NCBI GenBank assembly: GCA_947632645.1
Contig: CANRQB010000001.1
Coordinates: 70,813-134,812, forward strand
Direction: 5' to 3'
DNA: 64,000 nucleotides
Origin: an uncultured Clostridia bacterium
GTDB lineage: Bacteria > Bacillota > Clostridia > Christensenellales > UBA1242
Shown here piece after piece: positions 36,645-60,136 of this stretch (positions are counted from its first letter, which is position 1; each line of letters opens with the position of its first letter). The notes under the pieces are model-generated. The model was not told the DNA's origin. It worked only from the letters and a program-made list of their open reading frames with translations, and searched no databases. The position numbers and the translations under genes are program-made.

Positions 36645-36675
36645 TAAAAAAATCACCAATTTGGTGATTTTTTTA
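36645..36675. terminator. Bidirectional terminator
   Basis: A7-ATCACC-aattt-GGTGAT-T7. A near-identical motif recurs at 63971-63998. Confidence 0.7.
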
Positions 36676-37220
36676 CAAATACTTTACAATTTCGGGGAAG
36701 GTTTTGCCGTAGCCGGTGGCGGCAGTGAAATGGCCGGCGGCTGGGATTATTTCTTTTTTGGCATCAATCGTTTCGGCAAAGCGGTTTAGGATGTTAAAAT
36801 CGTAGATGTCGGTTGGGCTGTAAAAGCATATGCGTTCGCGTGCAAAATTTTTAAAATCAGCAAGGTTTGGCACAAAAAATGTTTTGTTAATTTCTTCCCA
36901 ATCTGGGTGTGGGCTGTTTGTGTTGGGCTCGTTAAATGGAACAACTCCAATAAATTTTGCAATTTTCAACTTGTTTTGCATTAAAAATTTCACAGTAAAA
37001 ATGCAGCCAGTAGAGTGCCCAATAAACACACTATCTTTGTTGATGTATTTTTTGAATGGCTCAAACGCCTTTGCCCAACTAGAATAACTCATCTTTTCTA
37101 ATGGTGGCAGGGTGGGTATGTAGCAAGTGTACCCCCCCCCGCAACGGTTTGCTTAATAAAGTTATACCAATAATCGTCCGCCGTGTTGCCCAGCGCATGA
37201 ATTACAAAATAATTTTTCAT
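36673..37220 (-). pseudogene. YdeN/RBBP9-type alpha/beta serine hydrolase split by a frameshift in a homopolymeric tract (phase-variable, or an assembly error)
   Basis: ATG at 37220 (GGAGAG RBS) gives MKNYFVIHALGNTADDYWYNFIKQTVAGGG, then a stop at 37098-37100. One extra G in the G9 run (C9 on plus, 37132-37140) joins it in frame to ORF 36673..37092 (MSYSSWAKAF...GHSTGC...). The joined product aligns along its length with the 183-aa paralogue at 37257..37808. Confidence 0.75.
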
Positions 37221-37256: not shown

Positions 37257-37808
37257 TTAAATTTTTTCTATTTTTGTTAAAAGTTCGGGGAAGGTGGCAT
37301 AGCCAGTTTCGGTGTTAAAGTGGCCAGCATCTGCCTTTAAAATGGTTTTTGCCTTTATGTTTTTTGTGAACATATCTAGTAAATAATATGGTACATAAGG
37401 GTCATTTTTGCTTATATAGCATACCCGTAGCGGGCATAGGTATTCAAACCCTTTAATTTCATCCAAGAAAAATGTTTTGTTAACCGCATCGTAATCCGGC
37501 ACATTAATAAAGCAGTTAAACCCGCTTATGCTAAACAGCGCCTTAATTTTAAGTTTGTGTTCTAGCAGATATTTAACAATGAAAATTGGACCAATGCTTC
37601 TGCCAACAAAAATTGTGTCGCCATTAATTTTGTTCGCATATTTGTTTAGCACCTTTGCCCAAGCCGCATAACTTTGCTTGCCTATGCCGATAGGGAAGTT
37701 GGGTGCTATAACTTCAAAACCATTTTTCTCCAAATTTTGTTTTAGCCAGGGGATGTAGTGTTCGCGGCTATCCCCAAAACTTCCATGAACAATAAAAACT
37801 GTACTCAT
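37257..37808 (-). CDS. YdeN/RBBP9-type alpha/beta serine hydrolase
   Basis: 183 aa; MSTVFIVHGSFGDSREHYIPWLK...VGRSIGP...GHFN... matches the pattern of the small esterase family. Confidence 0.75.
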   Translation of the reverse strand: MSTVFIVHGSFGDSREHYIPWLKQNLEKNGFEVIAPNFPIGIGKQSYAAWAKVLNKYANKINGDTIFVGRSIGPIFIVKYLLEHKLKIKALFSISGFNCFINVPDYDAVNKTFFLDEIKGFEYLCPLRVCYISKNDPYVPYYLLDMFTKNIKAKTILKADAGHFNTETGYATFPELLTKIEKI

Positions 37809-37942: not shown

Positions 37943-39955
37943 TTAAAATAGATCGTCGTCGTCATCGTCGTCGCCATTTTGCCTTGCCATTAATTTGTTG
38001 CGCTCTTTAATGTCGTAGAACACCTTTTCTTCATCCAGTGCGCGGCGTTGCATATACACTGGCGCTGCCTTACTTGTATCGTACAAATTGGTTGCTTTAA
38101 AGTATGGGGTGATTTTGGTTTTAAGTGCGGCTTCTGGCTCGAAGGTCTTAATAATAATTTGCTCTTTATCCCTAAACGACATAAGTTCGTGCGGGTAGGC
38201 GATAGGGATGGATTGGTTTTGTTTAGAATACGATTTTGTGGTTTTGCCGTCCGGCCCTTCGCTTTCGTTTACGCTTTGTACGCTGATGGTTTTGTTGCCA
38301 AGTAGTTCGCTAAACTCTTTGTTTGTAACCGTGTCTTCAGATGCGATATACACTTGAATAGGGCAGTTATCTTTAATAATTTTACCCTCATCCTGCCCGT
38401 ATACCTGATACAACTGGCTGTAGCTTTGCACAATCAGTTCAAAGAAAATGCCACGGCTGCGGCCAACCGCCATATAGTTACCAAATTGTGGGAACTTAGG
38501 CATGTTACCGAACTCATCTAGCATAAAGTACACATTGCGCTTTAGTTTGCCACCAATTTGGTTTGCCTTTTCTACAAGCCGTTTATACAGTTGGTTAACA
38601 AACAAAATTGCAAGTGGGTAACGCGTGCGAATTTCATCTGGAATAATAAGGAACACTGCAGTAGGTTTTTCGTCTATCTTGGTAAAATCCAATTCGCTGT
38701 TGCTGGTTAAAAATGCAATACCAGAGTCGTTAAACATACTTACGCCGGCGGTTGCAAATCCCACGTAGTTTTTAGAAGTACTATCCGCATTGTTAAGCGC
38801 GGTGTTGCAAAGTTGTGCCACCTGGCCAAATTTATCGCGATAGCTAAATAGATATTGTTTCATAGTGGCGTAAGTGTCGCGTCCGCTATCCTGTGTGTTA
38901 ACAATTTTTGCCACGTTGTAAAAGTTAAATTTATCTCGTGTAAGGCCAAGTTCTGGAATACGCGTATCCTCTAGCATCGCCAAAATTATACCTTGCAGCA
39001 GTTTTTGCGCGGTTTGCTCCCAACTTGGGTCTTTTTCGTTTTGGATTGGCACAATCGCTTGGCAGATATCGGTTAGGGCATTATATGTTGTGTCTTGCAA
39101 CTCTTTTGCCACAACGCGCATATCATTTTCTAGCAGATGCTTGTCTGCATAAGCGGTGTTGCCAAATTCAAACCAAGTGGTGGTGTTGTAATCAAAATTG
39201 GTTTGTTTTATAAGCTTATATCTGTCCGGATTATCGCCCGGCTGATGCACTTTAACTTCTTTTGCCAAATTAAAACTGCGGGTGTATAAATCGTATGGGT
39301 AAAAAAGTGGATTCCATTGCACGCTTTGGAATGGGTTGCGTAGGTTTAAAACGTGCACATCATACCCTTCCTTTCTAAACTTGTTGGCGTTAATTTCGTA
39401 CAGCTCGCCCTTAGGGTCGGTTATAACAAAGCTTGGCTTTGCAGCAGTGGTAGACATAAGTTGCAAGCTAGGCACAACAAAACGTGTGGTTTTACCCGAT
39501 GATGTGGTACCAACAACTAGGGTGTGGATTGGCTTTACAAAATTTATTTCCATGCCTAAGCCCTTTGCCTCGGCGCGCACCAAAATGCCGTCTTTGTTGC
39601 ACGAGCGTATGCTAGATAGGGTGTTGTAGTTAAAGCCCTTTTCTTTTTTAAGCACGTCGTCGGTTACAAAATCTTTATCATAAAATTGCTGAACTTTTTT
39701 GCCCTTGGTGTCGGTAACGCTATCCTCTGCCTTGCCGCCCTTTTTAGAACCGCTGCTGCCATCTAACGATTTAAGCACCTTAATAACAAAGTATACCGCC
39801 ATAGAAAAGCCAGTTATAAACAAACTAACGCCAATATATTTGCGGTTAAAAGCAAAAGCGCTGGTGCTAAAATAGGTTGCAACAATGTTGCTAACAACAA
39901 ATATCAAAATTGCGGTTATAACAGCAAAGATAATTTTTTTACCGATTTTTTTCAT
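37943..39955 (-). CDS. Type IV secretion coupling protein (VirD4/TraG/TraD family ATPase) with a poly-Asp C-terminus
   Basis: 670 aa. Two N-terminal TM helices; Walker A VVGTTSSGKTT; DPKGELY; Walker B YFMLDEFGNMP; GRSRGIFFELIVQSYSQL; tail ...QNGDDDDDDDLF. Confidence 0.88.
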   Translation of the reverse strand: MKKIGKKIIFAVITAILIFVVSNIVATYFSTSAFAFNRKYIGVSLFITGFSMAVYFVIKVLKSLDGSSGSKKGGKAEDSVTDTKGKKVQQFYDKDFVTDDVLKKEKGFNYNTLSSIRSCNKDGILVRAEAKGLGMEINFVKPIHTLVVGTTSSGKTTRFVVPSLQLMSTTAAKPSFVITDPKGELYEINANKFRKEGYDVHVLNLRNPFQSVQWNPLFYPYDLYTRSFNLAKEVKVHQPGDNPDRYKLIKQTNFDYNTTTWFEFGNTAYADKHLLENDMRVVAKELQDTTYNALTDICQAIVPIQNEKDPSWEQTAQKLLQGIILAMLEDTRIPELGLTRDKFNFYNVAKIVNTQDSGRDTYATMKQYLFSYRDKFGQVAQLCNTALNNADSTSKNYVGFATAGVSMFNDSGIAFLTSNSELDFTKIDEKPTAVFLIIPDEIRTRYPLAILFVNQLYKRLVEKANQIGGKLKRNVYFMLDEFGNMPKFPQFGNYMAVGRSRGIFFELIVQSYSQLYQVYGQDEGKIIKDNCPIQVYIASEDTVTNKEFSELLGNKTISVQSVNESEGPDGKTTKSYSKQNQSIPIAYPHELMSFRDKEQIIIKTFEPEAALKTKITPYFKATNLYDTSKAAPVYMQRRALDEEKVFYDIKERNKLMARQNGDDDDDDDLF

Positions 39956-45471: not shown

Positions 45472-45508
45472 TTAAAATCTTATTATAGTGATTTTTCACG
45501 GAGGGGTT

Positions 45509-48295
45509 ATGATAAGGTATATTCCCGGTAAAACGAGGATTAAAACTGAATTTTTTAGAAACTTTGGGCTAATGGATATTCTATTAGCCATTGTTTTGGC
45601 TGTGTTTGCAATTGTTATTGCATCCAGCCAACGCTTGTTTGTGTTTGGCGGAACGGACTATCGCTGGTGGTTTGTGTTGGGCTGGATTGCAATATCTATT
45701 TCTATGTTTTTGCCAATTGATGATGGCCTTAAAATGTGGAATAGTATTGGGTTGGTTATAAGGTTTGCCGCTTTCCCACGCAAATATATTAACGATAAAA
45801 ATGCAAAAATTGTAAAAACCAAAAATGGCAAAACCAAAACTGTTGTTAAAGGCGGAAAGCCTATGAGCAGGCTTACACCTTTCTTTAACATAGAAGTGGG
45901 CAAGTATATAAACATGGGCAGTTATTCGGGCATCGCCATCGAAATTATGCCAGTTGCAATGGACCTTATGCAAGAAGAGGCGCAGGATGGCTTAATAAAC
46001 ACCTTTTCCCGTGCACTTAAACGTATAACGCGTTATCAGCGTGCGCAACTTATAAAAACCATAAAACCAATGCGTTTTGATGGCTTTTTGGATAGTGACG
46101 ATAAGAAATACGATTTGCTTAACACCTTGTACGAGCAGGGGCAGTATAGCGATGCCGAGATGGAAAGCCGCAGTTTAATTTTCCGCGAACGTGTGGACAT
46201 TTTAAACAATGCAATAAACAGCGAGCCAATACTGCAAAATCACTACTATTTTGTGCTGTATGGCGACGATAGGCAAAGTTTGGACGATACCAGTGTGGGC
46301 TTTGTTAACGACCTTGCCAGTGGGCAGTATTCTATCGCCAGCAAAATTCTTATGGAAGAAGAGCTTATAAGTTTTTTAAAATCTAACTACGATGATGTGT
46401 ATTCCGAGCAGGATATTAAAAACCTTGCGCCAAGCCAGGTTAACAACTGGGTTATGCCGGGCAAAATCAACTTTAAAGTGGCGCGCTTGGAAATGGATAA
46501 AAGAAGTTATCGCCAACTTGCAATTTCCGATTATCCTATGGAGGTTGGTAATGGTTGGGCGTACCAAATATTTAACCAACCAGGCACGCGTGTGGTTATG
46601 AACATTATGCCGGTGGATAGGGAGAAGGGCGAAAAGGCCATTGACCGCGCCGTTATGGAGAAAGAGTTAAAACTGGAGCGCACCTATAGAAGCAGCCAGA
46701 TTATAGAAAAGGAAGCAGATATTGATAGTTTGCGCACCCTTTTAACCGATATTAAAACCAATAACGAACAGATTTACGATATCAGCATCCATTTGCGTGT
46801 GGAAGAGCAAAGCAGAAAAGAAGTGCGCAACGTGCTTAAACAATATGGCTTTAAACAGAGCGAATTATTTGGGCGCCAGGTGGACGCGTTTGTATCCAGC
46901 AGCTTAAATAGGATAGACACTCTAACCAACTTCTACCGCACTATGCCATCTACCACTATCGCTGCATCCTTCCCAATGGTGGATAGTTTGATGCAGGATA
47001 AAAATGGGTTCTGCCTTGGGCGCTCGTCGTCTAGCGGATACCCAGTGTTTATCGATTTCTTTGTGCGTGATAGCCGCGCCGGGCGTATTAACAGTAACCT
47101 TATGGTTATTGGTAAATCGGGCTCGGGCAAATCGTTTGCGGTTAAGGATATTTTGGCAAACCTTGCCGCCGACCGCACTAAGATATTCCTACTAGACCCA
47201 GAGGACGAATACGGCCCGCTTACACACAACTTGGGCGGCAAACTTATCGACGTTGGCACAAATAGTTCGGGTATTATAAATCCTTTCCACATTATGGCAG
47301 CGCTTGAGGACTTGGAAACCGGTGTGGGCGAGGAAGATGATGATGAAGATAAGAGCATAGATGAACTTGTGGCGCGCGGCAATAACAAAACTTTCTTTAC
47401 TCATTTGCAGTTTTTGGAGCAGTTCTTCCGCGCAATTTTGGAGGGCATAAGTTCGGACGCATTTGAAACACTTAACACTTTGGTGGTAGAACTCTATCAC
47501 AGCAAGGGGATAGACGAAAAAACCGATATCGGCAAACTTACTGCCAACGATTATCCAATTTTTGATGACTTATTTAAACTTATTAAAGATAAACTAAAAA
47601 CGGTTAAGGACGAATTTTACCGCAACAATCTGCTTGTGCTGGAAACCTATATTCAAAAATTTGCAACTGGCGGGCGCAACTCGGATTTGTGGAACGGCCC
47701 AACCAGCATTTTAACTGACGAAAACCTTATTACATTTAACTTCCAAACACTGTTTGCCAGCAAGAACAACAAGTTGGCAAACGCGCAGATGCTGCTTGTA
47801 TTTAAATATTTGAACAACGAAATTATCAACAACAAACGCTTTAACGAACAATATTATGCGCGCACGGGCAACGACATTAAACGCCAAGTTGTTATTGCGG
47901 TGGACGAAGCGCACATGTTTATCGACCCAGACAGCCCGGTTGCGCTTAACTTTATGGCGGAGATGGCAAAACGTATACGTAAATATCAGGGTATGCAAAT
48001 TGTTATTACGCAAAATATTAAGGACTTTTTGGGCACGCCAGAAATTCAGCGCAGATCGGCGGCAATTATTAATGCCTGCCAATACAGCTTGATACTGCAA
48101 CTTGCGCCAAACGATATGGCGGATTTGTTGGAACTTTATAAGAGCGCGGGCGGCATAAACAAACGCGAACAAGAGGGCATTTTAACCGCACCTCAGGGCA
48201 GGGCATTCTTTATCACCAGCCCAATGAACCGCTCGTTTATCGACATTATTGCTCAGCCAATTGCGAGGGAGATTATGGGCGAAGGGCGAAGATAA
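45509..48295 (+). CDS. VirB4/TraE/TrbE-family T4SS ATPase with an N-terminal VirB3-like membrane segment
   Basis: ATG at 45509 after GGAGGGG. Two N-terminal TM helices; Walker A VIGKSGSGKSF; LLDPEDEY; Walker B VIAVDEAHMF; ...IVITQNIKDF... Confidence 0.88.
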   Translation: MIRYIPGKTRIKTEFFRNFGLMDILLAIVLAVFAIVIASSQRLFVFGGTDYRWWFVLGWIAISISMFLPIDDGLKMWNSIGLVIRFAAFPRKYINDKNAKIVKTKNGKTKTVVKGGKPMSRLTPFFNIEVGKYINMGSYSGIAIEIMPVAMDLMQEEAQDGLINTFSRALKRITRYQRAQLIKTIKPMRFDGFLDSDDKKYDLLNTLYEQGQYSDAEMESRSLIFRERVDILNNAINSEPILQNHYYFVLYGDDRQSLDDTSVGFVNDLASGQYSIASKILMEEELISFLKSNYDDVYSEQDIKNLAPSQVNNWVMPGKINFKVARLEMDKRSYRQLAISDYPMEVGNGWAYQIFNQPGTRVVMNIMPVDREKGEKAIDRAVMEKELKLERTYRSSQIIEKEADIDSLRTLLTDIKTNNEQIYDISIHLRVEEQSRKEVRNVLKQYGFKQSELFGRQVDAFVSSSLNRIDTLTNFYRTMPSTTIAASFPMVDSLMQDKNGFCLGRSSSSGYPVFIDFFVRDSRAGRINSNLMVIGKSGSGKSFAVKDILANLAADRTKIFLLDPEDEYGPLTHNLGGKLIDVGTNSSGIINPFHIMAALEDLETGVGEEDDDEDKSIDELVARGNNKTFFTHLQFLEQFFRAILEGISSDAFETLNTLVVELYHSKGIDEKTDIGKLTANDYPIFDDLFKLIKDKLKTVKDEFYRNNLLVLETYIQKFATGGRNSDLWNGPTSILTDENLITFNFQTLFASKNNKLANAQMLLVFKYLNNEIINNKRFNEQYYARTGNDIKRQVVIAVDEAHMFIDPDSPVALNFMAEMAKRIRKYQGMQIVITQNIKDFLGTPEIQRRSAAIINACQYSLILQLAPNDMADLLELYKSAGGINKREQEGILTAPQGRAFFITSPMNRSFIDIIAQPIAREIMGEGRR

Positions 48296-50274: not shown

Positions 50275-53200
50275 ATGGTTAATATTATTAATCCATCTGA
50301 TGTAAAAAATACAACATTTGAAGAGTTAAGCCGTTTGGATGGCAGCATTTTGCAAAATTTTAAAAATGTGCGGTTTTTAATGGATGGCAGTTCAACTTGG
50401 TTTAGTCTTGGCGAGTTGGAAATTGTAGATGGCAAAACAAGAAGAGTTCCAACCTCACTTAAAGAGGTGGTGGATGCCTACAAAAATAGGCAACTGCGCA
50501 GAAGTGGCTTTTCCTACATTTGGGGCAGTGATGTTCACGATGCTACAAATATAACAATAGACCCATATAGTTTAACAGACACATATGTTTCGGATAGCAT
50601 AATTCCGGATGGCGCGGATGCAGCCGACTATATGTATGGCTTAAGAAGATTATTAAAAGTGCAACCATCTAGCGACGCTAATTTTAAAGAAAATAGATTT
50701 ATGTATGTTTGTGTTGACGGCATATGGAATTTTTATGATAAAAACGATATAGGCTACTATCAGGATGGCAAATTTACACCGATAAAAGATTTATCTAGGG
50801 ATGAGGTTGCAGAAATTGCAGATAAAGATTTGTATCTTTCGGATAGCTATGGTAACGCCCACATCACTGGTGTAATAAATCAGTCCTACTCTTTAACCCA
50901 AGTGGAGCATTCGGGCATGCCGGTTGTGGAAAGAATTTCTGACGATGGCTCAGCAATAACCTCGTATGTTTTAACAGATGATGGAACAAATTTCAGGTCG
51001 TATGTGTCAGGAAATTACGTAACAACTAACACTAGCAGCACAAGCGAATTTAACGAGCAATCTTTTTCGCTTAACAACAATGATGCACGCATGCAAACAA
51101 CCATTTATCAAACAAGCCAAAATGGCAACTATCTGCGCTTAAAGTTGCAAGGGCAATCCGAGCCGATAGCAGTGCGAGTAACTGGTGAGCAAAGCCAGCT
51201 ATACTATGCCGACAAATCCGGCAATCATGGCGAACAAGTAAGGTTGGATACCGAAGATCGCGCGCAAGTGTTACGCAGGATAATTGGTCAAGAATTATTT
51301 GTAAAAATAACCAGTGGGGCAGAAGAAAAATGGGAGCGAACCCAAGCAATAACTGCTCAGCAAGCACTATTTGCCTATAACACTGAAAAATTTATGCAGT
51401 CCACCAAACAGCATGATAATTACATGGCGGATAACGCTTATTTGCGCCTAAGCGATGGGCGTTATGTTAAAGAAAGCGAGTTTGTTCGCCCAATAGCGTA
51501 CAATTTTGTGTTTGACGAAAAGGCAGAATATGACGCTTATCTTTGCTATGTAACCAATGCCGAGGGCAAAACCGAAACCATTATTGCACCAAAAGATTTC
51601 ACTGGCGGCCGTATTGCTGGCTTTAATGTGCGCTCAGAGGATATGCTTCGCATCAAAAAAACCACAAGTCCGCTAAAGGAAAGCAACGTAATTCAAACCA
51701 CCAATAATGGCGAAAAATTAAACAGGTGCGTAACCTTAAACGAGCGTCCAGAAAAAGGTGCAATCACCGCAGCCAAAAAAGAAAAGGCAGATGAATTGTT
51801 GCAAAATGCGCTACAGCAGTTTAAAAACGAATATCAACAGGGCAGATATGCAATCGACGGCAATAAAGTGCTGGTTAAGCAAGAAGATGGCAGCTATAAA
51901 GAAATGGGCTTAGATTGCTCGGGCGAACTGCCAAAGCGCTTTATTTACTCGGACGAAATTTACACAGAGGACACAACTCACAGCGATAGCAAGTATAAAT
52001 ATCTATTAAACAACCCAGAATTTGTGGATGAAGCTACAGGAAAATTAAAAAATGGGCCTAAATTTAACACCAAAGCAGCAATTAAAGATTTCTACAAAAA
52101 ATTTGGTGCGTTTGGCTTAAAAGTAGGCGCAACATTCTTCCTTGGTGGCGGATTGTTGGCGTTGCTTGGCGCTCCTGTGCTTGTGGCTGGTGCGGCTGCA
52201 GCATATGTTGCAACCGGAGTTCTTGCGCCATTCTATTATTTGGCAAAAGGTATTCGTCTAAAATTTAAATCTTTTGCAGATAAGGTGGTTGCCAACCGCA
52301 ACAACATAAAAAAGAACTTAGATAATCAGTTGCAAAGTTTATATGAAAAAATTATGTCGCGCGCCGATACTATCAGTAAGGAAAAACAAAGGCTAGAGGG
52401 GTTGCAATCCACTCTCGATAGCGACCTTAATAGTGACCATTATGCCGATCTTCCTGGGGTGAAGGAACAAGATAATATTATAGAAAAATTGCGTGAAAGT
52501 TTGCCTAAAGATAGATGGGCAATCCTAGAAGAAGATTACGAAACTTATCTAGAAAAACAAACCTATATTAACAAAAATATTTTGGAAAAAATAATTTTTG
52601 TTGATGGCAAAAAAGTTTCTTCTAAAAAGAATTTAACCAAAGAAGATTTTGAAAAACTTGCAACCTGCTTAGATATTTCGGTAGACGAACTAAAATTTAA
52701 TTATTTAACTTCTAAGGGCAATTTAAAAACCAGTGAAATATTTAAAAAATTGCAAAAATTAACTACGGCATCTAAAGAAGTTAAAAAATACCAAGCAACC
52801 TTGCAACAAATTGTGGATGCTAAATCTATGCGCAGGCAAATTGTTGTCGACCACCTAAATAATGCACTGCAAAATTGCAATGGCGAGTTGGAAGCCCTTA
52901 AAAATAATTTAGAGGCAGCGCTAAATGGCGATATCGCTGCTGGCATCCACAGTTTAAGCGAAACCAGATATTTGGCTTTGTTTGAAATTAAAAATGGCTA
53001 TGCGGATGTAACCGAAGCGAATGCAGCACTATATAGCAAATTTAATTCGGACATTAAAAAAGTGGCGGGCAAACTAACCAAAATAAACAGTAAAGTAAGC
53101 AAAAATCCGGCTGACGCATCCCTAATTGCCGAGCAAAAACAATTGCAGGCCAATTTGTATGCGCTAATCAATTCGCCAAAAGCGGGCGCAATATACGACG

Positions 53201-54087
53201 AACTTAACGAGCGCCGCGAATACGAGCAGAAGATAGAAACTTTAAAAACCTATCTTGGCGTTAAATACTTTGATGGCACAACAACCATTTCTATGGTGGA
53301 CGAGCAACTTAAATCGGGTGCATACACACTGGACGCTACTACCATGCAGTACAAATTGTCTAGGCATTCTAGGAACAAAAAGCAAGACAAAATAGACGAG
53401 CAAAAATTTAACAGCCACATTTCTAGGTTTAATGGGCAAGTTTACAAGGCCGATCAAACTGTGGAGGTTGATGGGTTTGAATATCGTTGCATTAAAATTG
53501 GCGATAATCTATATGCTAAAAACAGCAGTGGCGAATTTAAACAAGTGGTTAAAGATAAGGATAAAACCTATACATTTAAAGATATTGCTGATAATGTAGA
53601 TTTAGAGGCACACAAAATGCTATCGTCTACAAAAATTACAGTGATAGAAGAAAGTGGCCATTACGAAAAACCTGTGGTTGAAGAAGTTGCCCCTGCGCCT
53701 AAGCCAGACGAGGTTAATCCAGCCAACGAGGAAGAAAAACGCAAAAAGGCAGAAAAAAATGCAGAAAGAAAGGCAGAGTACAGCAAGCCAATTTCCGAAA
53801 GCACAGTGCAACAAAACGATCTTTGGAAGGGCATCGTTGCCGCGCGTCAAATTGATTTGGCGGGCGAAAATGCTGCAGAAGAGGTGGCAGAATTTAGCAA
53901 AAAACTTAAATTTATAACCAGCAAAAAATACGCTGCTTTGCTAGAAAAAGCGGCAAAAAGTGCACCAATCGAAATTGAAGTTAAAGGCAAAAAACAGATA
54001 GTAGATATTGGTTTGTTAAGCGACACAAGCGAGCATATAACAAACATTCAAAATTTGGTGGAAAAACTAAAAGGCAAAACAAAATAA
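50275..54087 (+). CDS. Giant (1270 aa) hypothetical protein with a central two-helix membrane anchor and a coiled-coil C-terminal half
   Basis: No signal peptide. Hydrophobic pair ...FGLKVGATFFLGGGLLALLGAPVLVAGAAAAYVATGVLAPFYYLAKG... near residue 640. The C-terminal half is heptad-like and K/E-rich. Extended -10 TGTTATAAT upstream. Confidence 0.75.
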   Translation: MVNIINPSDVKNTTFEELSRLDGSILQNFKNVRFLMDGSSTWFSLGELEIVDGKTRRVPTSLKEVVDAYKNRQLRRSGFSYIWGSDVHDATNITIDPYSLTDTYVSDSIIPDGADAADYMYGLRRLLKVQPSSDANFKENRFMYVCVDGIWNFYDKNDIGYYQDGKFTPIKDLSRDEVAEIADKDLYLSDSYGNAHITGVINQSYSLTQVEHSGMPVVERISDDGSAITSYVLTDDGTNFRSYVSGNYVTTNTSSTSEFNEQSFSLNNNDARMQTTIYQTSQNGNYLRLKLQGQSEPIAVRVTGEQSQLYYADKSGNHGEQVRLDTEDRAQVLRRIIGQELFVKITSGAEEKWERTQAITAQQALFAYNTEKFMQSTKQHDNYMADNAYLRLSDGRYVKESEFVRPIAYNFVFDEKAEYDAYLCYVTNAEGKTETIIAPKDFTGGRIAGFNVRSEDMLRIKKTTSPLKESNVIQTTNNGEKLNRCVTLNERPEKGAITAAKKEKADELLQNALQQFKNEYQQGRYAIDGNKVLVKQEDGSYKEMGLDCSGELPKRFIYSDEIYTEDTTHSDSKYKYLLNNPEFVDEATGKLKNGPKFNTKAAIKDFYKKFGAFGLKVGATFFLGGGLLALLGAPVLVAGAAAAYVATGVLAPFYYLAKGIRLKFKSFADKVVANRNNIKKNLDNQLQSLYEKIMSRADTISKEKQRLEGLQSTLDSDLNSDHYADLPGVKEQDNIIEKLRESLPKDRWAILEEDYETYLEKQTYINKNILEKIIFVDGKKVSSKKNLTKEDFEKLATCLDISVDELKFNYLTSKGNLKTSEIFKKLQKLTTASKEVKKYQATLQQIVDAKSMRRQIVVDHLNNALQNCNGELEALKNNLEAALNGDIAAGIHSLSETRYLALFEIKNGYADVTEANAALYSKFNSDIKKVAGKLTKINSKVSKNPADASLIAEQKQLQANLYALINSPKAGAIYDELNERREYEQKIETLKTYLGVKYFDGTTTISMVDEQLKSGAYTLDATTMQYKLSRHSRNKKQDKIDEQKFNSHISRFNGQVYKADQTVEVDGFEYRCIKIGDNLYAKNSSGEFKQVVKDKDKTYTFKDIADNVDLEAHKMLSSTKITVIEESGHYEKPVVEEVAPAPKPDEVNPANEEEKRKKAEKNAERKAEYSKPISESTVQQNDLWKGIVAARQIDLAGENAAEEVAEFSKKLKFITSKKYAALLEKAAKSAPIEIEVKGKKQIVDIGLLSDTSEHITNIQNLVEKLKGKTK

Positions 54088-54160: not shown

Positions 54161-54180
54161 TGTGTTAGTTGGAGGAAATT

Positions 54181-56364
54181 ATGGATAACACGCAAGATGA
54201 AAAAATGATAATAAATTTAACAATAAAAAAATTAGTACGTTTTTTACATGAACGAGCTTGGTATTGGGATGATAAATTTAGTTGTATCTTTGAAGAAATA
54301 GCTAATAAAGTAAATTCATTTGCTGCCATAGTTAAAGGTTTGGCAAAAAAGCTATTCTTAAAAGATACAGCAGCAGATCATAAAAAACTTGCCGAATATT
54401 TAGTATATTTATCCCATGATGACCTTTTAGATGTTTTAGATACAGTTATTAAAACTAATGATGGAAATCTTATTTATAGATTTGCTTGCGATGCAGATTG
54501 CTTAACTTATGAAGACAAAGTAAAATTAATGGACAAACTTATTAAGATAAACGACTATTCTCGGTTGCCTTATTTTGCAAAGGATGTTAGAGGCATAACT
54601 CACGAGGACATAGTAAAATTAGCAGACGCAACTATTAAAACTAACAATGCGGAATATATTTATAAATTTGCTATAATTGTAAAATATTTATTAAACCACG
54701 AGGACATAGTAAAATTACTAGATGCAGTTATTACAACTAAAGATGCGGGATATATTTTTGACTTTCTTCAAAATGTAAGAGGCTTAAACAATGATGACAA
54801 AGTAAAATTATTAGATGTAGTTATTAAAACTAAAGATGCGTATCTCATTTTTGGTTTTGCTACAAAAGTAAAAGGCTTAAGCCCTGAAGACAAAGTAAAA
54901 CTATTAAAAGCAGAAATTGCAACAGGTAGTGCGAAATATATTTATGAATTTGCTAAAAATGTAGAAGGCTTAGAGCGTGAAGACAAATTAAAATTATTAG
55001 ATGCAGTAATTGCAACTGGTAGTGCGGAATATATTTATAAATTTGCTAAAAATGTAGAAGGCTTAAACCCTGAAGACAAAGTAAAACTATTAGACGCAGT
55101 TATTGCAACTGGCAATGCTGAATATATTTACGAATTTGCTAAAAATATACGAGACTTAACCACTGAAGACAAAGTAAAACTATTAGATGCAGAAATTGCA
55201 ACTGGTAGTGCGAAATATATTTATGAATTTGCTATAATTGTAAAATATTTATTAAACCACGAGGACATAGTAAAATTATTAGATTTAGTTATTAAAACTA
55301 AAGATGCGTATTATATTTATAAATTTGCTAAATATGTAGAAGGCTTAACCCCTAAGGATAAAGTAAAACTATTAAATGCTTTAATTGCAACTGGCAATGC
55401 TGAATATATTTACGAATTTGCTAAAAATATACGAGACTTAACCACTGAAGACAAAGTAAAACTATTAGATGCAGAAATTGCAACTCGCAATGCGGTGTAT
55501 ATTTATTATTTTGCTATACTAATGTGGCGGGACTTAGCACGCAAGGACCAAGTAAAATTATTAAATGCAGAAATTGCAACTGGCGATGCGTATTATATTT
55601 ATATATTTGCTGCAGAAGTAAAAGGCTTAACCCCCGATGACAAAGCAAAACTATTAAAAGCAGAAATTGCAATTGGCGATGCGTATTATATTAATGTATT
55701 TGCTTTAGGAGTAAAAGGCTTAACCCCCGATGACAAAGTAAAACTATTAGAAGTAGAAATTGCAACTGGCAATGCGGAATATATTTATCAATTTGCTACA
55801 GAAGTAGAAGGCTTAACCCCCGATGACAAAGTAAAACTATTAGAAGCAGAAATTGCAACTGGCGATGCGGAATATATTTATCAATTTGCTACAGAAGTAG
55901 AAGGCTTAACCCCCGATGACAAAGTAAAACTATTAGAAGGAATTATTGCAACTGGCGATGCGTATTATATTAATGAATTTGCTTTAGGAGTAGAAGGCTT
56001 AACCCACGATGACAAAGTAAAATTATTAGATTTAGTTATTAAAACTAAATATGCGGGTAGGATTTTTGATTTTGCTACAAAAGTAGAAGGCTTAAGCTAT
56101 GAAGACAAATTAAAATTATTAAATGCTTTAATTGCAACTGGCGATGCGTATCATATTTATCGATTTGTTACAGAAGTAGAAGGCTTAAAAATTGATGATT
56201 TTTATACAATATACGATGCATTCATGCATGACAAATTTGATGATAAAAGATATTTTAACAGATTTCTTAAATTATTTAAAGAAACGTTTGGGTTAACAAA
56301 ACAAGAAATAGAGGAAAATCGAGAATTTTTACTATTTAAATTCACAAAAATTTCACCTGTGTAG
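54181..56364 (+). CDS. Tandem-repeat (about 19 x 31 aa) predicted alpha-solenoid protein
   Basis: ATG at 54181 after GGAGGA. Repeat consensus L-[TNS]-P-[ED]-DKVKLL-x-A-x-IATG-x-AEYIY-x-FA-x-x-VEG. 93-nt DNA period. No signal peptide. Confidence 0.8.
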   Translation: MDNTQDEKMIINLTIKKLVRFLHERAWYWDDKFSCIFEEIANKVNSFAAIVKGLAKKLFLKDTAADHKKLAEYLVYLSHDDLLDVLDTVIKTNDGNLIYRFACDADCLTYEDKVKLMDKLIKINDYSRLPYFAKDVRGITHEDIVKLADATIKTNNAEYIYKFAIIVKYLLNHEDIVKLLDAVITTKDAGYIFDFLQNVRGLNNDDKVKLLDVVIKTKDAYLIFGFATKVKGLSPEDKVKLLKAEIATGSAKYIYEFAKNVEGLEREDKLKLLDAVIATGSAEYIYKFAKNVEGLNPEDKVKLLDAVIATGNAEYIYEFAKNIRDLTTEDKVKLLDAEIATGSAKYIYEFAIIVKYLLNHEDIVKLLDLVIKTKDAYYIYKFAKYVEGLTPKDKVKLLNALIATGNAEYIYEFAKNIRDLTTEDKVKLLDAEIATRNAVYIYYFAILMWRDLARKDQVKLLNAEIATGDAYYIYIFAAEVKGLTPDDKAKLLKAEIAIGDAYYINVFALGVKGLTPDDKVKLLEVEIATGNAEYIYQFATEVEGLTPDDKVKLLEAEIATGDAEYIYQFATEVEGLTPDDKVKLLEGIIATGDAYYINEFALGVEGLTHDDKVKLLDLVIKTKYAGRIFDFATKVEGLSYEDKLKLLNALIATGDAYHIYRFVTEVEGLKIDDFYTIYDAFMHDKFDDKRYFNRFLKLFKETFGLTKQEIEENREFLLFKFTKISPV

Positions 56365-56473: not shown

Positions 56474-57838
56474 ATGCAGAATTTTGATAAGATTGTAAAC
56501 CTTTGCAAGGCGCGCGGAATAATTTTCCCGGGCAGCGATATCTACGACGGGCTTGCCAACACCTGGGATTATGGCCCGGTTGGGGTGGAGTTAAAAAACA
56601 ACATCAAGCGCGCGTGGTGGAAAAGGTTTGTGCAGCAATCCACAAATAGTTTTGGTGTGGATGCAGATATTTTTATGAACAGCAAGGTGTGGGAGGCAAG
56701 CGGGCACACTGCCAGTTTTTCCGACCCTAAAATGGATTGTAAAAGTTGCAAAACACGCCACAGAGCAGACAATTTAATAGAAGCGCACAGCAAAGGCACA
56801 GTTAATGCAGACAAGATGACTAATGAAGAAATGGAGCAATATATCGCCGAGCACAAGGTTGCTTGCCCAAAATGTGGTAAGTGTGATTGGACACCAATCC
56901 GCAACTTTAACCTTATGTTTTCAACTTCGCGTGGGGTGACGGACGAAAGCCAAAACCTAATATATCTGCGCCCAGAAACCGCGCAGGGTGAGTTTGTAAA
57001 CTTTTTAAATGTTCAGCGCAGCATGCGTGCAAAAGTGCCATTTGGCATTGCGCAAATTGGCAAAGCATTCCGCAACGAAGTTACCCCTGGCAACTTCACT
57101 TTCCGCACAATTGAATTTGAACAAATGGAGCATCAATGGTTTTGTAAGGCGGAAGATAGCATGAATTACTACAACGAATTTAAGCAAAAAGCATGGGATT
57201 TCTTGCTTTCTATCGGCTTTAAGGCAGAAAATTTGCGCTTTCACGACCATGACAAACTTGCGCACTATGCTAAGGCGGCTTGCGACATCCAGTACAAATA
57301 TCCAATCGGTTGGGAGGAGTTGAACGGCATACACCACCGCGGCGATTGGGATTTATCTCGTCACCAAGAATTTAGCGGCAAATCCATGCTGTACACCGAC
57401 CCTTTCACCAACGAAAAATATATACCGAATGTAATTGAATATTCAATCGGTGCGGATAGGCTAACACTGGCTGCCATGTGCGAGGCATACGACGAAGAAA
57501 AATTGCCGGACGGCGACACGCGTGTGGTTATGCATTTTCATCCAGCCATTGCGCCATATAAAGTGGCAGTGTTGCCGTTGCAAAAAAACATGGGGGATAA
57601 GGCACGCGAAATTTATAGCGACCTTACCAAATATTTTATGTGCAGTTACGATGAGGCTGGCAGCATAGGCAAGCGTTACCGCCGCCAGGACGAAATTGGC
57701 ACCCCAATGTGCATAACTATCGATTTTGACACGTTAGAGGACAACACAGTAACCGTTCGCGACCGCGACACTATGCAGCAAATCCGCCTAAATGTAAGCG
57801 AACTTAAAGATTATATTGCAAAGAAAATTACTTATTAA
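56474..57838 (+). CDS. glyQS: Glycine--tRNA ligase (homodimeric class II type)
   Basis: 454 aa; ...GIIFPGSDIYDGLANTWDYGPVGVELKNNIK...FRNE(V)TPGNFTFRTIEFEQME... Confidence 0.94.
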   Translation: MQNFDKIVNLCKARGIIFPGSDIYDGLANTWDYGPVGVELKNNIKRAWWKRFVQQSTNSFGVDADIFMNSKVWEASGHTASFSDPKMDCKSCKTRHRADNLIEAHSKGTVNADKMTNEEMEQYIAEHKVACPKCGKCDWTPIRNFNLMFSTSRGVTDESQNLIYLRPETAQGEFVNFLNVQRSMRAKVPFGIAQIGKAFRNEVTPGNFTFRTIEFEQMEHQWFCKAEDSMNYYNEFKQKAWDFLLSIGFKAENLRFHDHDKLAHYAKAACDIQYKYPIGWEELNGIHHRGDWDLSRHQEFSGKSMLYTDPFTNEKYIPNVIEYSIGADRLTLAAMCEAYDEEKLPDGDTRVVMHFHPAIAPYKVAVLPLQKNMGDKAREIYSDLTKYFMCSYDEAGSIGKRYRRQDEIGTPMCITIDFDTLEDNTVTVRDRDTMQQIRLNVSELKDYIAKKITY

Positions 57839-57897: not shown

Positions 57898-57952
57898 GTT
57901 GCTTTTTAATAAAAAAATAGAGATAAAAAACAAAAAAACGAGCAAATGCTCG

Positions 57953-58075
57953 TTAATTCGTTTTATTTTTATTTGACTTTTTACTTAACTTTTTATTTTT
58001 TTCTTTTGGGCAAATTCTGTTTACAAGTTCGTCAAACTTTTTATCCATATAAACATTAAATTCTGCTTGTGTCAT
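57953..58075 (-). CDS. Small (40 aa) basic ORF translationally coupled to the 26-aa-repeat protein gene
   Basis: Hand-translated and below the track cutoff: MTQAEFNVYMDKKFDELVNRICPKEKNKKLSKKSNKNKTN. The ATG lies 1 nt after the upstream stop, with GGAGTGG just upstream. A terminator (ACGAGC-attt-GCTCGT plus T-run on minus) follows. Confidence 0.4.
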   Translation of the reverse strand: MTQAEFNVYMDKKFDELVNRICPKEKNKKLSKKSNKNKTN

Positions 58076-58076
58076 A

Positions 58077-59399
58077 TTACCACTCCAATTTATTTATTTC
58101 GCTTATAACTGCGTCTTGATGTTTTTGTTCTTCAGTAAGTTGTTTTATGGCCGCAGCCCTTTTACTGTCAATTTCATTGTCCAACTTATCTAATTGTTTG
58201 TCAAATTCTTTAACTACTTTATCTGGAACTTCATCAGTGTAGCCGTTTTCTTCACAAATTTGATTAAATTTTTGTTTAAATTTATTTTTAATTATAGCGC
58301 ACAACACAAATACTGCCTCATTGTTGGCAAAAATTTCAATTGGTAATTGATCGAATTTTATTTTGCCTGCGCCATAAAGGATAAGGGCTTTTTGTGCCCT
58401 GTAAGTTGGCTCAAAAATTGCTGCAGGAATAGAATTTTTTGTTTTTTCATCAACAAGATTTGCTGTATTATGACGCCAAGAAGCACCCATATTTATAATT
58501 TCTTGCGGAATTTTCTGAATTTGTTTTTGTGACAAGCGTTTTAAATATCCGCCATTTAATGCGCGTCTATTAATGCTTTTTTGCGAAATTGATTTTATCA
58601 TGTCTTCTGTAATACAATCCAGATCCAAATCACCGCCATTTTCAACATATAAGTCAAAATCCTTTTTAGAGATAGCAGCAATCTGTTTTGCTGTTAAATT
58701 CTCTAGCGAATAACCATTTTGTGCACGTTTGTTTACAATTTCTTGTGGGATTGCTGCAATTTTTTCGCTTGGAAGATAACTTAAGCTCCAGCCATTTAGC
58801 GCACGTTGATTAATTATATCATTTGGTATGTATAGGTCTAATCTCATCAATTTAAATTTAGTTAAGTCGTCTAAATCTCCACCATTAGCAATATATTGAA
58901 ATAAAATGTGCTCAGGAATTGAAGATAATTGCATTTTAGTAAGATAATTTAAATCTCCGCCATTTGCGATATATTTAATAATGATTCTAGAAGGAATATT
59001 TTCAATTTGTTCTCGCGTAAAACAGTCAAGATACTTACCATCTATTGCGTATTGATTAACAATTTCTTGCGGAACTGCTTTTATTTGCTTGTTTGTAAAG
59101 TAACTAGGATCTTTGCCTAATTGCAAATATTTGTTTACTATTTCTTGCGGAACGGCTTCTATTTTAGGTAGAAGTCCCAAATCATAGCCTTTTGCCACGC
59201 GCTGATTAATAATATCTTGAGGAATAGCACTATTTTTTATTTGAAAGTTTTCAAGATAAAGCAAATTTCCACCATTGGCAATATATTTCAATATAACTTC
59301 TTGCGGAATCGCAGAAATTTGTGCTTTAGATAAGAAATCTAGATCTCCGCCATTTGCGACATATTGATTTATGTCGTCTTGTGTTAACTCATATTTCAT
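58077..59399 (-). CDS. Tandem-repeat (about 12 x ~26 aa) protein with a coiled-coil C-terminus
   Basis: 440 aa. Repeat consensus IPQEI(V/I)N-x-Y-(I/A)-ANGGDL-x-(Y/F)LT-x-x-QI-x-A. No signal peptide. AGGGAGG RBS. Confidence 0.8.
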   Translation of the reverse strand: MKYELTQDDINQYVANGGDLDFLSKAQISAIPQEVILKYIANGGNLLYLENFQIKNSAIPQDIINQRVAKGYDLGLLPKIEAVPQEIVNKYLQLGKDPSYFTNKQIKAVPQEIVNQYAIDGKYLDCFTREQIENIPSRIIIKYIANGGDLNYLTKMQLSSIPEHILFQYIANGGDLDDLTKFKLMRLDLYIPNDIINQRALNGWSLSYLPSEKIAAIPQEIVNKRAQNGYSLENLTAKQIAAISKKDFDLYVENGGDLDLDCITEDMIKSISQKSINRRALNGGYLKRLSQKQIQKIPQEIINMGASWRHNTANLVDEKTKNSIPAAIFEPTYRAQKALILYGAGKIKFDQLPIEIFANNEAVFVLCAIIKNKFKQKFNQICEENGYTDEVPDKVVKEFDKQLDKLDNEIDSKRAAAIKQLTEEQKHQDAVISEINKLEW

Positions 59400-59420
59400 A
59401 ATAATCCTCCCTTATAAATA

Positions 59421-59452
59421 AGTATACCATAGGGGGGGGGGGTCTCTGTCAA
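59421..59452 (-). promoter_or_regulatory. Promoter with a homopolymeric tract (C11 on the coding strand) as the -35/-10 spacer; candidate phase-variation switch
   Basis: The minus strand reads TTGACA-gaga-C11-ta-TGgTATACT. -35 at 59447-59452, tract at 59432-59442, extended -10 at 59421-59429. The spacer is 20 nt as sequenced. Confidence 0.6.
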
Positions 59453-59560
59453 GTGAGTTTGGCAAAAAAATTTAAAAAATATGAAAATTTTGTCAAAAAT
59501 TTTTTTGAACGGGTTGTTCTGCTTCTTTTTATAAAAAAGAGAAAAAATAAAAAAACTCCA

Positions 59561-60136
59561 CTATACTGTGGAATTTTTAATTTCTTGTTCGCAATCTTCA
59601 AGCCATTGTGGAAATTTTTGTTTGCAGAATTTATAGGTGTTGCTGTCGGTGTTATTTAGAACTCCAAAACGGATAATTCTATCTTTTATGTGGCGTTCCA
59701 TTTGCTCAACATACTCGGGCGCGGTTGAGAATTTATGAAAATCAATTTTGCCTTGTTTTATAAGTTTATTAATCACTTTATATAAATCATCCACCTTTGT
59801 GCACTTTAAAACTTTGGCGGGCTGACTACTGACAACCTCTGGGCTAAAACTGGTTTTGCCCTCTTCAAAATTGGCTGGGTTAACCTCATAAATATAGCAA
59901 CTTTCGTCTTGAAAAACCCGCTCCAGCGCGCCAGGATACGCCTCAAAAAAGCATGGCTTGCCATTGTTTAGCCCCAAAATTCCGTCAAAATCACCAAAAC
60001 TTTTTTTGCTTCCAAACATAAGCGCAAGGCACAAGTCGGACGTGGCGTAAACATAACTTACACCATGAGTTGAAACGGGCGGCTCAAGCACTGTTATGCC
60101 CGGTGTTGCCGAAACATGATATAATTTCTTTTTCAT
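59561..60136 (-). CDS. Hypothetical 191-aa protein
   Basis: Clean ORF; no recognisable family. Confidence 0.6.
   Translation of the reverse strand: MKKKLYHVSATPGITVLEPPVSTHGVSYVYATSDLCLALMFGSKKSFGDFDGILGLNNGKPCFFEAYPGALERVFQDESCYIYEVNPANFEEGKTSFSPEVVSSQPAKVLKCTKVDDLYKVINKLIKQGKIDFHKFSTAPEYVEQMERHIKDRIIRFGVLNNTDSNTYKFCKQKFPQWLEDCEQEIKNSTV

Follow-up and report, generated by a model that had tools for sequence, protein, structure and literature searches.

The window, by which we mean the whole 64-kb stretch of DNA analysed here, has a G+C content of 38.5% and carries a minus-strand two-gene unit, made of a gene for a 440-aa repeat protein and a short downstream ORF (table 1), whose flanking genes are rplI, leuS, a class II tRNA synthetase gene and a large ribosomal-protein cluster. 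A scan of the whole window, ribosomal-protein cluster included, found no Rfam family above gathering score and no tRNA, and the usual ribosomal leader families were not detected. The window also has SpoVT and type IV secretion-like ATPases: among the housekeeping genes, beside a pair of Ser_hydrolase genes, lie a VirD4/TraG-type coupling protein gene (37943-39955, minus) and a gene for a VirB4/TraG-P-loop-like ATPase (45488-48295, plus). The two may be parts of a type IV secretion-like system or of an integrated conjugative element. A tandem array of 16 copies of a 93-nt (31-aa) repeat (TRF score 1168-1458) lies in a 731-aa ORF (54169-56364, plus), whose sequence is unrelated to that of the 440-aa protein and gave no significant match to any family; nor could any family be assigned to the adjoining 1270-aa ORF (50275-54087). 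Between rplI and the repeat-protein gene lies a 191-aa ORF (59561-60136, minus), again with no family match. It is missing from the syntenic locus of another species (L010), where the promoter-proximal intergenic sequence is retained; judged from the sequence comparison, it is a lineage-specific insertion or deletion.

Table 1. Coordinates of the promoter elements, genes and repeat tracts discussed in the text (window positions unless a contig is named).
Feature	Position	Strand	Remarks
-35 hexamer TTGACA	59447-59452	minus	perfect consensus (6/6), read from sequence
GAGA	59443-59446	minus	between -35 and C tract, read from sequence
C11 homopolymer (G11 on plus strand)	59432-59442	minus	inside 20-nt spacer; proposed slippage-prone element
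TATG	59428-59431	minus	extended -10 ('-16') element of the TRTG type; a single base separates it from TATACT
TATGG	59427-59431	minus	between C11 and -10
-10 hexamer TATACT	59421-59426	minus	5/6 match
TATGGT	59426-59431	minus	alternative -10 candidate, proposed from sequence
RBS AGGGAGG	59406-59412	minus	6 nt 5' of ATG; kept in L010
Terminator-like hairpin of upstream 191-aa gene	59551-59578	minus	would insulate the promoter from read-through
Gene for 440-aa repeat protein	58077-59399	minus	about 11 repeats of about 26 aa and a helical C-terminal domain
40-aa ORF, MTQAEFNVYMDKKFDELVNRICP and basic tail	57953-58075	minus	one base after the 440-aa ORF
Terminator-like hairpin and T run	57937-57954	minus	closes the two-gene unit
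C9 tract (G9 on coding strand)	37132-37140	plus (coding strand minus)	lies within the second gene of a tandem pair of Ser_hydrolase (PF06821) paralogues
Ser_hydrolase paralogue ORFs	37257-37808 and 36673-37219	minus	
C9 promoter tracts of tandem paralogues	L024:1439-1465 and L024:2932-2959		
(GCTG)n promoter tract, example	L034:1367-1411		

The repeats of the 440-aa protein follow the consensus IPQEIINQYxANGGDLxxLxxxQIxA, and its conserved C-terminal domain ends in EW. The initial annotation had likened the locus to phase-variable genes for surface or secreted proteins. The premise of such a product is unsupported, because the N-terminus (MKYELTQDDINQYVANGGDL) is hydrophilic and neither a signal peptide nor a transmembrane segment was found by Kyte-Doolittle analysis and sequence inspection; the highest 19-residue window (1.68) includes charged residues and falls within a predicted soluble helix. 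Searches against Pfam, NCBIfam, PADLOC and PHROGs returned nothing above threshold (DUF3173, LigA and FliG_N appeared as sub-threshold noise and were rejected), and a search of IMG/VR for a phage association found no relatives. The AlphaFold model (pLDDT 90.5) is an alpha-solenoid, a superhelix of short helix pairs. Foldseek matched it best to designed armadillo proteins and importin-alpha in the PDB, but weakly so (E at or above 5e-3, TM about 0.15, 10-16% identity). As modelled, the protein would thus resemble armadillo/HEAT alpha-solenoids such as importin-alpha in superhelical architecture only, and it differs from them in its repeat of about 26 rather than about 42 aa and in matching no Pfam family.

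The solenoid family is a previously undescribed and fast-evolving one from uncultured gut Clostridia and Bacilli, with copy numbers that reach five or more in a genome. It is small (about 35-40 clusters among 5.8 billion proteins), and the relatives found come from MAGs that carry the labels uncultured Clostridia, Eubacteriales or Bacilli and derive from the gut of rabbit, ruminant and mouse. A single genome, MAG E27__bin352 ('uncultured Bacilli'; L018, L020, L022, L027, L029), has at least five paralogues, which share the upstream region …catgaatcgccat…ttgatttt…gatatcataat…, whose spacer contains no repeat. The rapid divergence and paralogy of the family suggest a role in conflict or adaptation. 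In the seven loci checked (L001, L012, L015, L034, L042, L045, L046), an ORF of 32-43 aa equivalent to the one in the window (M..EF..YMD.KFDELI.R.CP and a basic tail) lies directly 3' of the family gene. The peptide matches no family, and its recurrence at this position makes it probable, from gene arrangement, that the two genes form an operon.

Rereading of the minus strand agreed with the promoter proposed for this unit in the initial annotation, TTGACA-GAGA-C11-TATGG-TATACT, with a spacer of 20 nt (59427-59446; GAGACCCCCCCCCCCTATGG). The distance of about 20 nt from the -10 to AGGGAGG that had been given with it needed correction: the actual gap is 8 nt, and it is the ATG at 59399 that lies 21 nt past the -10. 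The -35 is separated from TATACT by 20 nt at C11 and by 17 nt at C8, and from the overlapping TATGGT by 15 nt at C11 and by 17 nt at C13. An alternative -35 in better register was considered and rejected, as the hexamers placed 17 and 18 nt before TATACT at C11, ACAGAG and GACAGA, match TTGACA at 0/6 and 2/6 positions.

Because the region contains 15 consensus promoter matches for 10.9 expected, such matches alone are no evidence of function, and this could be taken to mean that the tract is a neutral outcome of slippage or mutation between genes and that the flanking hexamers play no part in driving the gene, which would instead be transcribed by read-through or from a second consensus-like promoter, TTGACA-16-TAAATT, located 44 nt upstream of the tract promoter (59496-59469), which might provide transcription independent of the tract. 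We regard this explanation as quite improbable. The -35 of the upstream candidate is degenerate in L010 (TTGCAA), whereas the core of the tract promoter is identical there at 37 of 38 positions, tract length included, and the hairpin at 59578-59551 precedes the region. Moreover, promoters of the same kind recur upstream of homologues in unrelated genomic contexts, in keeping with the anatomy first proposed: TTGACA is found 5' of the homologues in L010, L012, L017, L019, L021, L024 (twice), L031 and L033-L055, and TTGACA with TATA(A/C)T precedes the RBS across the family, usually with a 17-nt spacer, the spacing at which TATACT itself occurs in L012, L019, L036, L037 and L050. The form TATG-A-TATACT is kept in L010 and also present in L021 and L045. 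The neutral explanation is further disfavoured by the length of the run, expected fewer than 0.01 times per window.

That expectation, for G/C runs of at least 11 in 64 kb, is 0.002 under independent bases and 0.0075 under a first-order Markov model, which bears out the earlier statement that runs of this length are unexpected here. The C9 at 37132-37140 is indeed the only other G/C run of at least 7 in the window; apart from these two, the longest runs are of 6 G and 5 C. We also scanned the whole window for pairs of a perfect -35 and a -10 within TATA[AC]T. In each of the other five TTGACA...TATAAT pairs the spacer is AT-rich and measures 16-17 nt; the C11 promoter is the only pair outside this range and the only one with a GC-rich spacer. 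Runs of G or C are known to be unstable from a length of about 8-9 upwards. Both the length of the tract and its excess over composition (11 nt against 6 for the next G run and 5 for the next C run) fit what is expected of a contingency locus, as does its placement inside the -35/-10 spacer, where porA, vlp and hif carry theirs.

The C9 tract interrupts the second Ser_hydrolase paralogue, as had been noted, with a stop after 40 aa; G10 or G7 on the coding strand would restore a 182- or 181-aa Ser_hydrolase ORF. The tract reads G9 in three other assemblies (L047-L049), one of which is from a different study, and it represents either a pseudogene or a contingency locus within coding sequence that is kept in the OFF state.

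The possibility that the C11 tract, or its length, is a sequencing or assembly artefact was addressed by comparison with other assemblies. The identical 440-aa protein is encoded on seven short contigs from related samples, one of which (L001) crosses the tract and reads C11, as does L009, reached via a neighbouring gene. The fourth assembly that crosses it, along with the window, is L010, a 144-kb contig of MAG GCA_947630745.1 (rabbit, 'Lapin-024 bin88') belonging to a different, sister species, in which the promoter of the ortholog is TTGACAGAGA-C11-TATGATATACT. Between the window and L010, rplI, leuS and the gene for a 454-aa tRNA synthetase are 84-86% identical in nucleotide and 89-92% in amino-acid sequence, and the repeat proteins are only 70% identical. 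Homopolymer lengths are error-prone, and low-coverage SPAdes and Logan contigs break exactly at the tract, as they would if Illumina sequencing failed at poly-G/C. On the other hand, the recurrence of C11 in independent assemblies and in another species, together with the C9 tracts that an unrelated MAG from mouse carries at the corresponding position (see below), makes an artefact most improbable. The tract itself is secure, and the one uncertainty, that of its exact length, amounts to about one base.

The initial annotation had called for a comparison of tract length among strains. The tract itself recurs, but none of the four assemblies crossing it, from two species, shows a length variant. 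Scanning JGI metagenome DNA for tract-length variants with TTGACAGAGACC-N(0-14)-CTATGRTATACT gave 0 matches, and the exact sequence of the window protein is absent from the protein collection, so that no strain variants were gained there. That the length is the same in genomes about 15% divergent in nucleotide sequence could point to selection on it or to its stability.

Nine contigs from several samples (L002-L009 and L011) have one end no more than 10 nt away from the C tract. L002-L007 start with 0, 0, 4, 4, 4 and 7 C's (the start of L003 lies within TATACT), L008 runs as far as TTGACAG, L009 stops 7 nt past the tract, and L011, from the species of L010 but another sample, starts 3 nt past it. 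By contrast, the G9 tract at 37132 is crossed by 3/3 contigs at 2.6-2.8x coverage. Illumina quality falls at long G/C runs, and the coverage was only 2-10x. The contig ends are thus suggestive only: they fit length heterogeneity, and equally Illumina failure combined with low coverage. The other ends of L002-L007 also lie within about 150 nt of each other, at window positions 57450-57650 approximately, with no obvious repeat. This second recurrent break is located inside the gene for the 454-aa tRNA synthetase (56474-57838) and may be due to co-occurring related strains or species.

By reading the promoters and spacers upstream of family homologues, we found that many of them have ordinary AT-rich spacers of 17 nt (L017, L021, L025, L031, L041-L046, L057), which indicates that the family uses canonical TTGACA/TATAAT-type promoters. 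The spacer of L014 is likewise ordinary, so a spacer repeat is not a feature of all members. Three lineages, however, have an SSR or a GC-rich spacer of 4-nt periodicity. The first comprises the window and L010, with C11 and a 20-nt spacer. The second is L024 (mouse-gut MGBC127298; protein 36% identical), in which two tandem paralogues each have their own C9 tract, TTGACA-ATT-C9-GAG-TATAAT (15-nt spacer) and TTGACA-ATTA-C9-GAG-TATAAT (16-nt spacer); the protein behind these poly-C promoters is absent from the protein collection and has no close relatives there. The third is rplA-linked and has spacers of 17 nt made of AG(GCCA)3GGG in L012/L013 and of AGGCTAGCCGGCCGGTG, an interrupted GCTA-GCCG-GCCG, in L019, and spacers of 17-33 nt made of AG(GCTG)nGTG in one species (proteins P0023 and P0014). 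The interrupted repeat of L019 may be a 'locked-ON' derivative.

In that species the repeat number varies. Among 13 distinct contigs from different samples (within L033-L040 and L050-L055, rplK-rplA-linked), the commonest allele is (GCTG)3, found on seven contigs and giving exactly the 17-nt optimum; (GCTG)4 occurs on three (21 nt), (GCTG)6 on two (29 nt) and (GCTG)7 on one (33 nt). The flanks are at least 99.4% identical. In an alignment of L034-L040 over 1,893 shared columns, we counted 11 SNP columns and the GCTG repeat as the sole indel. L034 and L038 have identical flanks with n = 7 and 6, respectively, and L035 and L040 are one SNP apart with n = 4 and 6. Because (GCTG)n differs between such near-identical contigs, a spacer SSR is hypermutable in nature in this gene family. 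The spacer-length switching put forward in the initial annotation is therefore backed by analogy, through the C9, (GCTG)n and (GCCA)3 spacers of homologues, and not by variation at C11 itself.

Taking all this together, we give a probability of roughly 0.6 to the C11 tract being a working spacer switch of variable length on the sigma-A-type promoter of the two-gene unit. Replication slippage would add or remove C residues, each gain or loss would shift the distance and the rotation between TTGACA and the -10 region, and transcription would thereby be altered heritably but reversibly. For a tract of length n, TATACT lies n+9 nt and TATGGT (TATGAT in L010) n+4 nt from the -35. Lengths of 7-9 would align TATACT at 16-18 nt and lengths of 12-14 would align TATGGT or its L010 counterpart at the same distance; 10 and 11 are the sole lengths between 7 and 14 at which neither hexamer falls in this range. 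Because 20 and 15 nt are both outside the 16-18 nt working range, transcription in the C11 state is most likely at a low or basal level, with the TRTG extended -10 as its only possible driver. Some residual transcription from TATG-G-TATACT is likely, because the TRTG extended -10 of Gram-positive sigma-A promoters can partly dispense with the -35. Rather than clean binary switching, a graded, multi-state output like that of porA would be expected, given that C7-C9 would align TATACT and C12-C14 TATGGT; the extended -10 and the second -10 candidate likewise suggest graded output instead of the ON/OFF switch first proposed. We infer, at the C11 locus, variation in tract length, a dependence of transcription on length and the choice of ON state. 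Every observed copy of the tract in the window lineage has the non-optimal 20-nt spacer, and no productive ON state was seen. A suboptimal length shared by both species could mean that the OFF or low state is favoured in these hosts, a plausible situation if the contingency gene is costly, and could just as well denote a fixed element with another role.

Such a fixed element would be kept at 11 residues by selection for a constant role of the 20-nt GC-rich spacer, possibly as part of a weak promoter dependent on the extended -10, in regulator binding or through an A-form-like spacer geometry. The identity of C11 in four assemblies from two species about 15% diverged, the perfectly conserved flanks and the TRTG element, which could make -35 spacing partly irrelevant, are all in agreement with this possibility, as is the equally invariant G9 tract of the hydrolase (four assemblies). 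It is nevertheless unlikely. Homologues carry different repeats (C9, GCTG, GCCA) at the same spot, which fits a role based on length rather than on a specific sequence; the tetranucleotide version varies between near-identical contigs and its commonest allele gives 17 nt; and contig ends accumulate at the tract, nine in all. In addition, a poly-C run has no dyad symmetry and is thus neither a typical operator nor a MerR-type site.

Two other known arrangements were considered and rejected. Promoters of MerR-type activators have a spacer of 19-20 bp with a dyad-symmetric operator, and the spacer examined here shows neither dyad symmetry nor a palindrome. An inverton was rejected because no inverted repeats flank the promoter: those found around 59000-59900 are short, AT-rich and imperfect, and none brackets it. 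No recombinase was found among the neighbouring genes scanned.

Spacer repeats of the type proposed here are known from several bacteria. Poly-C promoter tracts occur in Neisseria opc and fetA, poly-A in the promoter spacers of the Mycoplasma hyorhinis vlp genes for surface lipoproteins, and (TA)n in the overlapping promoter spacers of Haemophilus influenzae hifA/hifB, which encode fimbriae. In vlp and hif, a working spacing is reached at just one repeat number or at a few. The window locus is like vlp and hif in having an SSR within the -35/-10 spacer, and the two tandem L024 paralogues are like the paralogues of those systems that have their own tracts; the repeat units differ, being A and TA there and C and GCTG here. 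To our knowledge, a tetranucleotide repeat inside a promoter spacer is unusual. The closest parallel is porA of N. meningitidis, in which an 11G tract lies between -35 and -10 and in which expression is high with 11G, 2-fold lower with 10G and 13-fold lower with 9G (PMC3639595). The two loci have in common a G/C homopolymer of 11 at this position, and, as in porA, tract length at the window locus may set the spacer and hence transcription in a graded rather than binary way. They differ in that porA 11G has the optimal spacer and high expression whereas C11 has a 20-nt spacer and predicted low expression, in host (a Gram-negative pathogen as opposed to an uncultured gut Clostridia-class Firmicute), and in product (an outer-membrane antigen as opposed to a cytoplasmic-looking solenoid). 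In Helicobacter pylori sabA, a promoter-proximal T-tract acts as a 'rheostat' whose length gives multiphasic output by slipped-strand mispairing (PMC4081817). The window tract is also a promoter-proximal homopolymer, but that of sabA lies 5' of the -35 and acts via UP-element phasing and DNA structure, whereas the window tract is in the core spacer. The window locus is thus probably a porA-type mechanism in an unusual host and gene family. That a single family uses two unrelated repeat types at one promoter position would, as far as the compared promoters tell, set the locus apart from porA/opc/fetA, vlp and hif, as do its host among uncultured gut Firmicutes and its cargo, an unannotated, intracellular-looking solenoid with a micro-peptide.

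The literature searched contained no SSR-spacer system in gut Firmicutes, which is no proof of novelty; accounts of phase variation in gut commensals deal nearly always with invertible promoters and epigenetic switches, and it is these that the searches returned. If the switch is real, public metagenomes would already hold clear porA-style spacer-length switching in uncultured Clostridia. The interest of the locus comes mostly from the family-wide pattern and the observed (GCTG)n alleles, and the proposal is testable from public reads. Repeat-number alleles can be read straight from assemblies, and the locus would give a handle for finding contingency loci in uncultured gut bacteria and for giving the solenoid family a selective context. 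As a practical caution, tracts of this kind fragment metagenome assemblies right at the regulatory site. More tentatively, and with somewhat more doubt than confidence, the family of solenoids with repeats of about 26 aa may be a dedicated contingency-gene family, which would make it the first SSR-based promoter phase variation described in commensal gut Firmicutes. Its promoters would have gained poly-C or GCTG/GCCA spacer repeats independently and more than once, and its intracellular product would act possibly in conflict with phages or mobile elements rather than as a surface antigen.
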